DNA of 64,000 nucleotides from Eledone cirrhosa (taxonomy: Eukaryota): positions 97,030,001 to 97,094,000 of the forward strand of contig OZ024742.1 in the NCBI GenBank assembly GCA_964016885.1. Reading direction: 5' to 3'. Shown here one piece after another: positions 3,046 through 61,131 of the stretch. The position numbers were made by a program, and so were the translations under genes. The notes below the pieces were generated by a model. That model was not told the DNA's origin. It ran no database searches and saw only the letters and a program-made list of their open reading frames with translations. Each line of letters starts with the position of its first letter. Position 1 is the first letter of the stretch.

Positions 3046-3291
3046 ACACACACACACACAAACACATATATGTATACATCATCATCATCATCATCGTTTA
3101 ACGTCCATTTTCCACGCTTGCATGGGTTTGGATTTATATATATATATATATATACATATATATATAGAGATAGATATATATAGATAGATATATATATGTA
3201 TATGTATATATATGTATATGTATATATATGCATATGTATATATATATATATATATAATATAAGATCAAAATATGGTTAAAAGAGTTCCATA

Positions 3292-3362
3292 TATTTTATT
3301 ATGCGCATTTCAAAAACAAATATTATCATAAGATGACATTTGCGTTTTCGTCAGATAAAATA
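3292..3362 (-). ncRNA. Type I hammerhead ribozyme
   Basis: uauuuuau-CUGACGA-long stem II-GAAA-ugcgca-UA-auaaaaua. 8-bp stem I and palindromic stem III. Confidence 0.8.
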
Positions 3363-3462
3363 GGGATACATGATATGAAGGTTAAAAAACACTTGTGAAT
3401 AGTGAAGTTTTAAATCAACATATCATGTTGATTTAAAACTTCACTATTCACAAGTGTATCCC

Positions 3463-3533
3463 TATTTTATCTGACGAAAACACAAATGTCATCTCATGAT
3501 GATATTTGTTTTTGAAATGCGCATAATAAAATA
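3463..3533 (+). ncRNA. Type I hammerhead ribozyme
   Basis: tattttat-CTGACGA-aaacacaaatgtcatc(tcat)gatgatatttgttttt-GAAA-tgcgca-TA-ataaaata. Confidence 0.85.
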
Positions 3534-3734
3534 CATGGAACTCTTTTAACCATCTTTTGATCTTATATTATTTATACTCCTGTCCTACAAACTGTAGAGT
3601 GCTACTTATCCGATATCTGCATTGCTTTATTATACTACAATAAAACTCACCTCCTACATTATATATATATATATATATATATAGATATGCATATATGAAT
3701 TGGCGCTCTGTATAGCGATGTATATATATGAATG

Positions 3735-4025
3735 TATATATAGTGTATTTGGTAATACACTGTATGCTTAATTAAAAGCATTTTGAAGACCTTACACTAT
3801 TGTTTTAAAGTCGTGACTATGTCACTTACTTCTTTTTCAACAATCAAAGGGAGATAAGCTGACATATCTCTGTTTTATACTGTTGGTATTCCTCAGAGCT
3901 TAGTACTCCCTTTGCTTGTTGAAAAAAGAAGTAAGTGACATAGTCACTACTTTAAAACAATGGCGTAAGGTCTTCAACATGCTTTTATTTAAGCATACAG
4001 TGTATTACCAAATACACTATATATA
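3735..4025. mobile_element. Fold-back element with a hammerhead in its apical loop
   Basis: Arms ~3735-3853 and 3906-4025 are near-perfect reverse complements, flanked by TA-rich repeats. Confidence 0.8.
3855..3902 (-). ncRNA. Type I hammerhead motif with G12A change
   Basis: uaagcu-CUGAGGA-auac(caaca)guau-AAAA-ca(gagaua)ug-UC-agcuua. All stems pair; GAAA is mutated to AAAA. Confidence 0.7.
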
Positions 4026-57440: not shown

Positions 57441-57964
57441 TATATATATATATATATATATATATATATATATATATATATATATATATATATATATATA
57501 TATATATATATATCACCTTGATCACCTTGACCGACCAGTCAGTCGGGCACCATTCCGCGCTACTGGTCACAGCACGTGCTGTTTTAACCATAATATGACG
57601 CCATCCCACTGGATATATATATATATATATATATATATATATATATATATATATATAGGAACCAGTAAGACCCCGACAGCTGAGCTCAAGCCGTTTCGAA
57701 TTAGCCGTCGAAACGGCTTGAGCTCAGCTGTCGGGGTCTTACTGGTTCCTATTACCCACTCTACTACCTCAAGTATTGAGTACTTTGGTGCGTTATGGTC
57801 CACCTGGTTCCTTACCACATTTCCTTCGTTATATATATATATATATATATATATATATATATATATATATATATATATATAAGTTATTCTGGGTTGAATC
57901 GGAGCTAACCACAGTAAGTAAGGTACACAATACATAGCAGAGTATAAAAGCTTTAATATAGAAG

Positions 57965-58015
57965 AGCTTCTACAGGATTAGAACTGTTTCATTCGTGAGA
58001 AATCATCAGGAAGCT
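57965..58015 (-). ncRNA. Type I hammerhead ribozyme
   Basis: agcuuc-CUGAUGA-uuuc(ucac)gaau-GAAA-cag(uucuaauc)cug-UA-gaagcu. Confidence 0.8.
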
Positions 58016-59140
58016 GGCTGTCCAAGTAGATGGTAGTATTTATGTCTTTCCTTATCTGGTGGTAGGAGATGGTGGGGATTGGGATGGGTGTAGGTCATTG
58101 GTTGAAGGATTTACAGAAAGGGGATTCATTAAAAGCTAATTCTTTAAAGCTATAATATTAACAAAGGCAGAAAGAATACTGTAAACAAGTTCAAAATTGG
58201 AATACCAATCTTTGTTTATCACTTAAAGTAACAATGACAGTAAGACAGGTGTCTGCAGGATGGGTGGCGTTCAATGGTTTAAAGAAAAGGGAAATGCTTT
58301 AGAAGCTAATTCTTTAAGGCTAAAATGAGGGTGACAAGGCAGAAAAGGTTCCATCAACAGATTCAAGTGTTGGGGTGAACCACCTATAGTGAAGTTTCTC
58401 TTAATATATATTCCAGGTGTCGACAAACACATTCAAATACGCGCCCACTTACACACATACACAGACTTACACGCACGCACACACAGGCAGGCACACACAC
58501 AACAAACATACATAATGGTACATACACACATGCAAATGCATACATACACATATACATATATATGTGTACATACATACGTATACATATACATATATATATA
58601 CATATACACACACACACACATATATATACAAATATATATATACACATATATATATATATATATATATATATATGCACACATACATATACAGATATATACA
58701 CATACATACACCCATACATACATACACAGACATATATATACATACATATAGACATACATATACACACATATATACACATATACATATATACACATACATA
58801 TACATTTACACACACGCACACACACGCACACACACGCGCGCTCTCATTAGCTTCTAAAGAATTTCCCTTTTCTTTAAACCATTGAACCCCACCCATCCTG
58901 TAGACACCTGTGTTACTGGCATTGTTACTTTAAGTGATAAACAAGGATTGGTATTCCAATTTTGAACTTGTTTACAGTATTCTTTCTGCCTTTGTTAATA
59001 TTATAGCTTTAAAGAATTAGCTTTTAATGAATCCCCATTCTTTAAGTCCTTTAACCAATGACCTACACCCATCCCAATCCCCACCCTTTCCTACCACCAG
59101 ATAAGGAAAGACATAAATACTGCCATTTACTTGGACAGCC

Positions 59141-59191
59141 AGCTTCCTGATGATTTCTCACGAATGAAACAGTTCTAGTTCTGTAGAAGCT
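59141..59191 (+). ncRNA. Type I hammerhead ribozyme
   Basis: agcttc-CTGATGA-tttc(tcac)gaat-GAAA-cag(ttctagtt)ctg-TA-gaagct. Confidence 0.8.
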
Positions 59192-60508
59192 CTTCTATAT
59201 TAAAACCATATATGTATACAGTGGCGGACTAGGTCTAAAAATGTTGGTTCCCAGATGAAGGGGGCCCAACTACATATAGAATGCTATCATTTAATTTTTA
59301 TAATGAATAAATAACATTTTCATAAAATACAGTTTGCGGATTAATGGTGATTTATATTTCTTTAATGAAATATATACAAGGAAGATTAATCATTTCTAAA
59401 AGGTAATATTTGAAGCTCTAGTTAAACTTTAATTAGTTACCTACCTAGCTATGTGTGATTACACACTTTACAAATTATCCCCTATGATTGTTTCATGTGT
59501 TTATTTTAAATATATATATGTCAATCAATTTCTAGTTGATATATATATATATATATATATATATATATATATATATATATATATATATATATATATATAT
59601 ATATATATATATATATATATATATATATATATATATATCCATAGGCGTGAAAAATGAAAATAAACAGTGTTCAATCAGGAATGAGAAATGATATATTGTA
59701 TTATTTATTACAATCTGTTGATATGGGCAATATTGGGCCTTGAAACCTGAGGTAGTGCTTTGTTCAGGGTCCTGATATTAATAAATAATATATTATATAG
59801 CCGGTGATTGTTTACCTCCTATTCCCTGTCACGTGACACTGAGAGTGGAGGTTACTACTATAATAACGACTTTATACCAACACAGTAGGCTCATATTAAC
59901 CAGTTCAAAAAAGGTTAATACCTCGCTGATGAAGCTGTTATACATAATACATAATACTTAATAATATTACCTAATGTCTGTGCATGCACCTCCTTGTGTA
60001 TTGTCGCTAGCGGAAGGGGTAACATAAACTAATGCATTAGTCCTGGGTCATAGTATATAACTCTATTCCCAAACAAAACTGTTTTTCTCACTATTTAACT
60101 TAAAGTGTGCACTCTGCTTTCCTTTTGGCTTGTATCTTAATGATACTGGCTTAATTGAAGCTTTAAGCGAGTGGGAAATCGATCAAAGGTTTTTCGGTCC
60201 TTTCGATGACTTCGTTTCACAGTCACCATGTTTAATAGCATAGTGTTATGTCCCTTTAAATTCTGTGTTCAAATCCCACCTAGGTGAGCTTTGCCTTTCA
60301 TATTTACGGGGTTGATAAAATAAAGTACCAGTCATAAACAGGGTTCGATTTAATCGACTTTACCGTCCTCCAAAATTGCTGGCATTGTGCCTCTAGTAGA
60401 AATCATTATATATATATATATATATATATATATATATATATATATATATATTTCGTTTCTGAATTTGTTTAACAAGATTCTTTATCTGAAAACGTGTGCT
60501 GAAACCGA

Positions 60509-61131
60509 TATTGTTATGCTTTGGGAGGGTCATGTTGCCAATAAGAAGCACACACACCAGTTGTTTTCCCTTCAATTTATTATAAATTAAATTTATAAAT
60601 TTAGGAATTTATAAATTTCCGGTTGGTTGGTTGGTTCCACAACCAGACGATTGTTCATATATTGTCAAAGTTCTTTCGTCACACATTCTGTGACCTCTTC
60701 AGTGACTGGGGATTCTTTTCACAACTTACAATTAAGGACAAAAGGAAAACACACACACACATAGAACAAACAACCAACCAGTAACATGTAAATAAACAAA
60801 TAAATAAACAAACATAAACACACACAGACACCCGGATGTAACACATGCGCAAACTTAGCACACAACACACACAAAAACAAGATGGCGTAGGACAGAACAA
60901 AGGAGAGGCACAAAAACAAAGAAAAGAATCCCCAGTCACTGAAGAGGTACAGAATGTGTGACGAAAGAACTTTGACAATATATGAACAATCGTCTGGTTG
61001 TGGAACCAACCAACCAACCGGAAATTTATAAATTCCAAAATGTATAAATTTAATTTATAATAAATTGAAATGAAAACAACTGGTGTGTGTGTTTCTTATT
61101 GGCAGCATGACCCTCCCAAAGCATAACAATA
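60509..61131. mobile_element. Fold-back element with minimal hammerhead motifs at 60664-60706 (-) and 60935-60976 (+)
   Basis: Arms 60509-60719 and 60922-61131. Motif: gtca-CTGAAGA-ggtcac(agaatgt)gtgac-GAAA-gaac-TT-tgac. Confidence 0.72.

Follow-up and report, generated by a model that had tools for sequence, protein, structure and literature searches.

The short palindromes scattered over a 64-kb window of the Eledone cirrhosa genome (the whole stretch of DNA that was analysed) are probably the shortest insertions of several families of Penelope-like elements (PLEs), each made of two cDNAs that were primed from both cut ends of a (TA)n target and joined head to head. Each landing likely produces its own palindrome afresh, with two copies of the element end as the material. 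These stubs are ordinary in kind, being PLE insertions at minimum size, and they are informative in detail.

Inverted Elements of the Window

Comparison of the masked window with itself by self-BLAST shows an inversion at all 11 places where the initial annotation had named an inverted-repeat element (Table 1). All 11 elements are located at or beside (TA)n, and the description of most as adjoining (TA)n and bearing a tail on a single side is borne out. The term mini-elements suits most of them, but not 57881, which is a 1.3-kb structure.

Table 1. Inverted elements, hammerheads and longer PLE insertions of the window. Elements are named by their first position; arm and tail lengths are in nucleotides.
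Feature	Position	Strand	Description
3255, family B stub	3249..3658		Inverted repeat 3257-3568; antisense arm without tail, 162 nt, then sense arm and tail of ~90 nt
3255 hammerhead	3292-3362	-	Complete type I
3255 hammerhead	3463-3533	+	Complete type I
3735 element	3697..4040		Inverted repeat 3743-4017; non-coding 318-nt tandem unit inserted head to head; left arm tailed
3735 hammerhead	near 3855-3902	-	Type I, G12 -> A; retrozyme-like unit
8411 element	8409..8700		Palindrome 8409-8604 with tail; hammerhead present as 3' half, whole in relatives
18408, family A stub	18403..18836		Inverted repeat 18410-18798; perfect palindrome, centre GATC at 18603-18606; 34-nt tail on right; Neptune/Nematis-type linker family; hammerhead not found
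31706, stub of 53220 family	31707..32158		Inverted repeat 31707-32069; tail on right
31706 hammerhead	31749-31814	-	Intact
31706 hammerhead	31962-32027	+	Mutated
48105 stub	48104..48341		Inverted repeat 48182-48341; left arm tailed; hammerhead core of right arm complete with T-T at helix II base, left arm copy mutated
48482, family C (Hydra-type) stub	48483..48688		Inverted repeat 48565-48685; left arm tailed; 3' half of U3-A8 hammerhead
48719 stub	48712..48856		Inverted repeat 48712-48835; in loci L248, L222 and L299 the arms lie on both sides of PLE ORFs
57657, family C stub	57655..57831		Inverted repeat 57658-57749; arms of 42 nt (tail-less) and 52 nt (tailed, with a further 80 nt of tail)
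57881 insertion, 48105 family	57882..59204		1.3 kb; tail, 359-nt arms 57952-58310/58846-59204, microsatellite-rich spacer; hammerhead cores on both strands
60509, stub of 677 family	60452..61129		Left tail; 210-nt arms 60511-60720/60921-61129; hammerhead cores on both strands, helix III minimal
Decayed PLE end related to 60509	657..1812	-	ORF fragment 1262-1812
Longer family A copy	34465..36537	-	pLTR at 34465, endonuclease fragment 35965-36537
Longer family C insertion	51016..52728	+	Inverted arm without tail; endonuclease fragment 51134-51751; pLTR with tail
Longer Hydra-type insertion	53220..55630	-	Identical 205-nt inverted arms, endonuclease fragment 54812-55429, left-end tail

Other repeats share the window. 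The self-BLAST detects a further palindrome at 33279-33705 that was absent from the initial list; it falls within 33273-33800, which together with 56931-57383 represents an older family of tailed palindromes. Neither a hammerhead nor a link to an ORF was found for this family. At 50626-50968, 105-nt arms (98% identical) surround an inner TA run and have few relatives among the sampled loci, and at 48949-50594 another repeat occurs in nested direct and inverted copies interleaved with TA/TATG runs. Three stretches (8483-11427, 13472-16188 and 44342-47793) are, judged by their ORFs, presumably RTE-like and Tx1/L1-like LINE copies, one of which begins with a TA run and the 8411 element.

Coding Parents and Family Identity

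Eight of the 11 elements have ends in common with longer elements that encode a Penelope-like RT/GIY-YIG protein. In 1.85 Mb of sampled loci, the arms of 3255, 18408, 31706, 48482, 48719 and 60509 are found 3' of PLE ORFs and, inverted, 5' of them, and the termini of these elements and of 57657 run on into an RT plus GIY-YIG-type ORF. ORFs from the sampled loci, used as tblastn queries, detect PLE endonuclease or ORF fragments at four places of the window. All four links to longer fragments that had been drawn from the window alone hold: 18408 with 34465 (81%; endonuclease at 35965-36537), 31706 with 53220 (77%; 54812-55429), 48482/57657 with 52511 (88-89%; 51134-51751) and 60509 with 677 (75-80%; ORF fragment at 1262-1812). 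The insertions at 51016-52728 and 53220-55630 end like the stubs, and stubs and long copies thus form one continuum.

The family B arm is joined to PLE ORFs in 20 of 167 matches. The PLE link of 48105/57881 is weak, with one link among 88 matches of 48105. Barring neighbours across TA runs, no coding parent was found for 3735 among 25 earlier matches and 14 new loci, nor for 8411 among 15 earlier matches and 14 new loci. Unpaired copies of the 8411 family (L349, L352, L353, L354 and L356) end at nearly one inner site, and this shared inner end suggests a short template of fixed length.

Locus L217 of family C contains a 786-codon frame with RWR, DKT, CxCx5C linker, CxxC and CxH motifs. In these motifs, in its hammerhead and in its (TA)n targets the family resembles the Hydra clade of PLEs (Craig 2021, section 11), a match made by motifs, but its hammerhead is a U3-A8 variant. 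This variant core lies at L217:6115-6210 and has a 54-nt helix II. The family A ORF combines DKG with a Cx4CxxC linker, which is the Neptune/Nematis type (Craig 2021, PMC8557442). Pfam returned RVT_1 matches for Neptune-type relatives and none for the endonuclease fragments of the window or the Hydra-type ORFs. The highest-scoring protein match is from a bivalve.

Architecture of Insertions in the Genome Sample

Exact matches to the arm patterns number 7,891 (family A, 18408), 6,870 (family B, 3255) and 29,146 (family C, 48482/57657) in the 3.0-Gb assembly. The sample pooled three sources: 120 of the 154 10-kb regions planned around the matches listed first on contig C1, the pattern loci, and the window. 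Structure counts exclude loci picked for similarity, which the haplotype table retains. It contains, in genome order, 174 head-to-head insertions of the three families, 153 of them no longer than 500 nt.

Exactly one tail is present in 167 of the 174 pairs (A 35/35, B 35/37, C 97/102), against about half of pairs expected if start sites were chosen independently. The seven exceptions comprise four shortened tails, a tandem whose true ends obey the rule, one tail-less pair and one two-tailed pair. TA occurs within 20 nt on both sides of 163 pairs. The outward-facing 3' ends abut TA: one arm ends at a far site, which gives the tail of 34-90 nt, whereas the end of the other arm is internal and TA-like. 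One-sided tails and termini that continue into PLE ORFs bear out the earlier view of the palindromes as retro-products rather than MITEs derived from DNA transposons.

Junctions between the arms are diverse, with 147 distinct forms. Among 156 close junctions, microhomology of at least 2 nt is seen in 58, a blunt join or a single shared nucleotide in 40, and extra bases, some of them copied from nearby, in 58. Contigs of four sequencing runs of unknown kind show loose TA ends at both outer sites and a step in depth at the inner pile-up of family C; they may derive from the assembly's own sample, their depth does not equal copy number, and they were set aside as support.

Formation of the Palindromes

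In the favoured reading, both ends of a (TA)n cut would prime reverse transcription of the element's end, with a protein dimer perhaps using one start site per target end and both primers copying one RNA, or RNAs of one source. Copying would run off at the RNA 5' end, giving a shared inner stop, and the two cDNAs would be joined head to head, likely by host end-joining. The stubs are then likely dead by-products whose hammerhead is buried in a hairpin. A PLE studied in vitro cuts and extends both strands, with two start sites defining the tail; the tested protein is a predicted dimer and uses uncleaved RNA (Frangieh 2024, PMC11167929).

The initial annotation had instead attributed the palindromes to abortive snap-back. 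In such a reading a single cDNA would fold on a self-complementary end and copy itself, and template jumps or later deletions would make the arms unequal. As a general route this is unlikely. The tail-less arm is longer by more than 12 nt in 48 of the 174 pairs, and the tailed arm ends inside the tail in 14; a cDNA begun at the tail cannot template a longer tail-less arm by fold-back unless later deletions are assumed, and a tail-less first cDNA is unable to template a tail. At L217, a multi-kb tail-less sense side with the whole ORF stands opposite a shorter, tailed inverted arm, and a few short pairs (L115, L149, L063 and L141) have arms of different haplotypes. The tailed arm is the longer one in 17 pairs and five extend beyond the reference; the 104 pairs whose arms agree within 12 nt fit snap-back as well as priming from both ends. 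Perfect centres fall on natural short palindromes (GATC, CATATG), as snap-back would have it, and L025, L321 and L329 retain the junction but miss part of one arm.

The relatedness of the arms bears on both readings. Divergence is 1.3-2.6% within insertions compared with 3.9-8.0% between them, both arms carry the same haplotype in 189 of the 197 pairs that could be scored (one of the eight discordant rows is a mis-pairing), and variants private to one insertion are present in both arms 82 times. Concordance and private variants, which also speak for snap-back, show the arms to be of one source, with a probable contribution from local fold-back. Against priming from both ends, the arms are closer within insertions than between them, such private variants are what arm-from-arm copying or gene conversion would give, copying of the same RNA stretch into both arms needs strand displacement or two RNAs, and unequal arms could arise by later deletion in a palindrome.

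A Fixed Inner Stop

The inner ends of both arms pile up at one family-specific site. When a hot window of 12-15 nt was compared with the next equal window, unpaired arms included, 42 versus 1 of 134 arms ended there in family A, 37 versus 0 of 102 in family B and 158 versus 7 of 247 in family C. Tandem copies read through the hot spot, and the 5' start of full-length copies is hence uninformative. The C stop site reads TTAGTCC, with TATTTAAA 29 nt upstream, and the A stop site reads TCAGATC; we take both to match the initiator (Inr) consensus and TATTTAAA to be a TATA-like box. The family B stop is without a TATA-like box and matches Inr imperfectly. In window coordinates the stops fall at about 52589 (C, the A of TTAGTCC), 3418 (B) and 18603 (A). 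An extra C follows it in 7 of 14 arms, a weak hint of a cap-derived base.

The pile-up likely marks the 5' end of the transcript, judging from the sequence, and the stubs would have arisen by run-off copying of the 5' pLTR. An Inr also belongs to the internal promoter of Drosophila Penelope (Schostak 2008, PMC2377424), and the PLE PAc primes at the pLTR-ORF junction (Frangieh 2024, PMC11167929). The C stop lies in the helix II loop, so that family C stubs hold half-hammerheads; with an RNA start at this position, only the 3' pLTR would carry the whole ribozyme.

Hammerhead Ribozymes

A strict scan for type I hammerheads gives five matches in the window, compared with 0.1 per shuffled sequence over 30 shuffles; looser scans were added, one of which gave any match in 9 of 240 shuffled elements. 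A full or partial hammerhead, earlier ascribed to most of the elements, is present in nine of the 11, and the scan is enriched over shuffles. The core is complete on both strands in only three (3255, 57881 and 60509), fewer than had been claimed, and on one strand in 31706 and 48105; presence on both strands follows from the inversion of the arms. A single mutated copy occurs in 3735, and the 3' half alone in 8411, 48482 and 57657. Descriptor scans found no hammerhead in 18408 or 48719, a provisional result, as a relaxed scan missed some hammerheads that the other scans detect. Descriptor scans replaced Rfam, where the hammerhead family was absent among the 150 of 177 matches listed; those listed were all sub-threshold and mostly miRNA.

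In the pLTR, a type I hammerhead is found in families B, C, 31706, 48105, 60509 and 8411 and was not found by these scans in family A or 48719. No hammerhead core was detected in the final 550 nt of one long 18408-family copy, whereas canonical PLEs are said to carry one.

The palindromes had also been described as ambisense self-cleaving hairpins. In the six strand-element cases computed, the arm-arm hairpin is favoured over the hammerhead fold by 56-87 kcal/mol, and in every transcript computed the hammerhead sits in the second, later-transcribed arm. This cost and this position make ambisense cleavage by the palindromes unlikely. Ribozyme cut sites were also considered as the origin of the junctions and rejected: the cuts lie ~40 nt (B) and ~18 nt (C) from the tail-less end, and the pile-ups at 162 and ~58.

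Self-Propagation and Transposon-Like Readings

The earlier description left it to be decided whether fold-back breakpoints are shared or unique. They are mostly distinct, yet the perfect A and B junctions recur genome-wide in 476 and 716 copies. This recurrence would suit a further possibility, namely that some palindromes are transcribed and re-inserted as self-propagating, non-autonomous subfamilies. The same holds for the 57657 form, of which at least 11 near-identical copies on several contigs share one haplotype, and for the ability of pLTR-framed DNA to be mobilised in trans (Arkhipova 2013, PMC3846280). The 57657 form is a candidate subfamily of this kind, but similarity to the query guided the choice of its copies. 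Among sampled loci, the A junction occurs on three haplotypes in eight copies, all three haplotypes also being present in longer copies, and the B junction on five haplotypes in six copies, with matching arms in all but one mixed-arm copy. Recurrence on several haplotypes indicates that these junctions formed repeatedly, a process aided by their self-complementary ends (GATC, ATAT). With 147 distinct junctions among the 174 insertions, self-propagation is improbable, and the proposed non-autonomous class is not supported as a class of palindromes; one element, 3735, is non-autonomous, as a tandem retrozyme-like unit.

Inverted ends, TA flanks and copies in the thousands would also be expected of TA-targeting MITEs of the Tc1/mariner type that had captured PLE ends. 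The symmetric TIRs and uniform interior of MITEs are not what is seen: a single tail makes the termini asymmetric, inner ends differ between copies, and RT/GIY-YIG ORFs adjoin the same termini in longer elements. A MITE origin is thereby refuted for families A, B and C and has hardly any probability overall; 8411 is tailed, and no parent was found for it.

Element 3735, a Retrozyme-Like Unit

Relatives of 3735 repeat head to tail with a 318-nt non-coding period, the longest stop-free frame being 54 aa, and one of them (L338) has a canonical type I hammerhead core. The unit thus has the form by which retrozymes are recognised, that is, a non-coding head-to-tail unit of 170-400 nt with a type I hammerhead. 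Among 14 paired loci of the family, about half of them selected by similarity, the outer ends are resolved in 12, and all 12 have one tail. No two junctions are alike, and although four arms cluster loosely at 126-135 nt, a little beyond the cut site, the family lacks a sharp stop, which is what copying from a circular or concatemeric template would predict. On sequence grounds, 3735 would fit a non-LTR retrozyme inserted by PLE machinery. Diverged (~80%) hammerhead-bearing relatives of the unit occur at L347:1868-2088 and L298:609-2673, which implies more than one retrozyme-like subfamily.

Non-LTR retrozymes share with 3735 the non-coding head-to-tail unit and the type I hammerhead (Cervera and de la Pena 2020, PMC7229834; Li et al. 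2026, 10.64898/2026.07.22.740005). In contrast to the retrozymes described there, copies of 3735 are dispersed and contain one or two units; they sit at TA targets and have inverted arms of the PLE type with a tail on one side. The accessible text of both papers proposes mobilisation by PLEs and describes no such insertion marks.

Relation to Known Systems and Implications

L1 twin priming yields two cDNAs from different parts of the RNA, whereas the arms of PLE stubs mostly derive from one and the same part. Priming of both target ends, with inversion as the outcome, is common to both (10.1101/2024.12.14.628481).

Published insertions of EN+ PLEs have head-to-head ends with a tail on one side, TA targets and a pLTR hammerhead (Craig 2021, PMC8557442; Arkhipova 2013, PMC3846280; Schostak 2008, PMC2377424), and the stubs resemble these elements in 5' truncation, an adjacent inverted copy, the tail, microsatellite targets, partial tandems and, in the families where one is found, the hammerhead. 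This architecture being known, the stubs form no new element class. They differ from the published elements in being mostly no longer than 500 nt, with short tails, and in that the one-tail rule and the fixed inner stop have been counted. How PLE inverted repeats and tails form has been called undefined (Craig 2021, PMC8557442). A literature search found no stub counts, no two-primer formation for PLEs and no PLE marks on retrozymes, although subscription papers or supplements may hold them.

Taken further, PLE integration may be obligately asymmetric, with two primers that use the tail site on one target end and an internal site on the other, tens of thousands of stubs being run-off products at the transcript start and retrozyme 3735 an insertion by PLE enzymes; for this extended proposal the chances appear evenly balanced. 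Counts of single-tailed pairs, of longer tail-less arms and of arms ending at the fixed stop constrain an open mechanism and yield predictions for the existing in vitro system. Stubs are abundant in three families alone and could pass for MITEs or microRNA hairpins. The 3735 family, with its PLE landing marks, bears on the question of which enzyme mobilises retrozymes; if the proposal is true, these marks would be direct genomic evidence that animal retrozymes are inserted by PLE enzymes.
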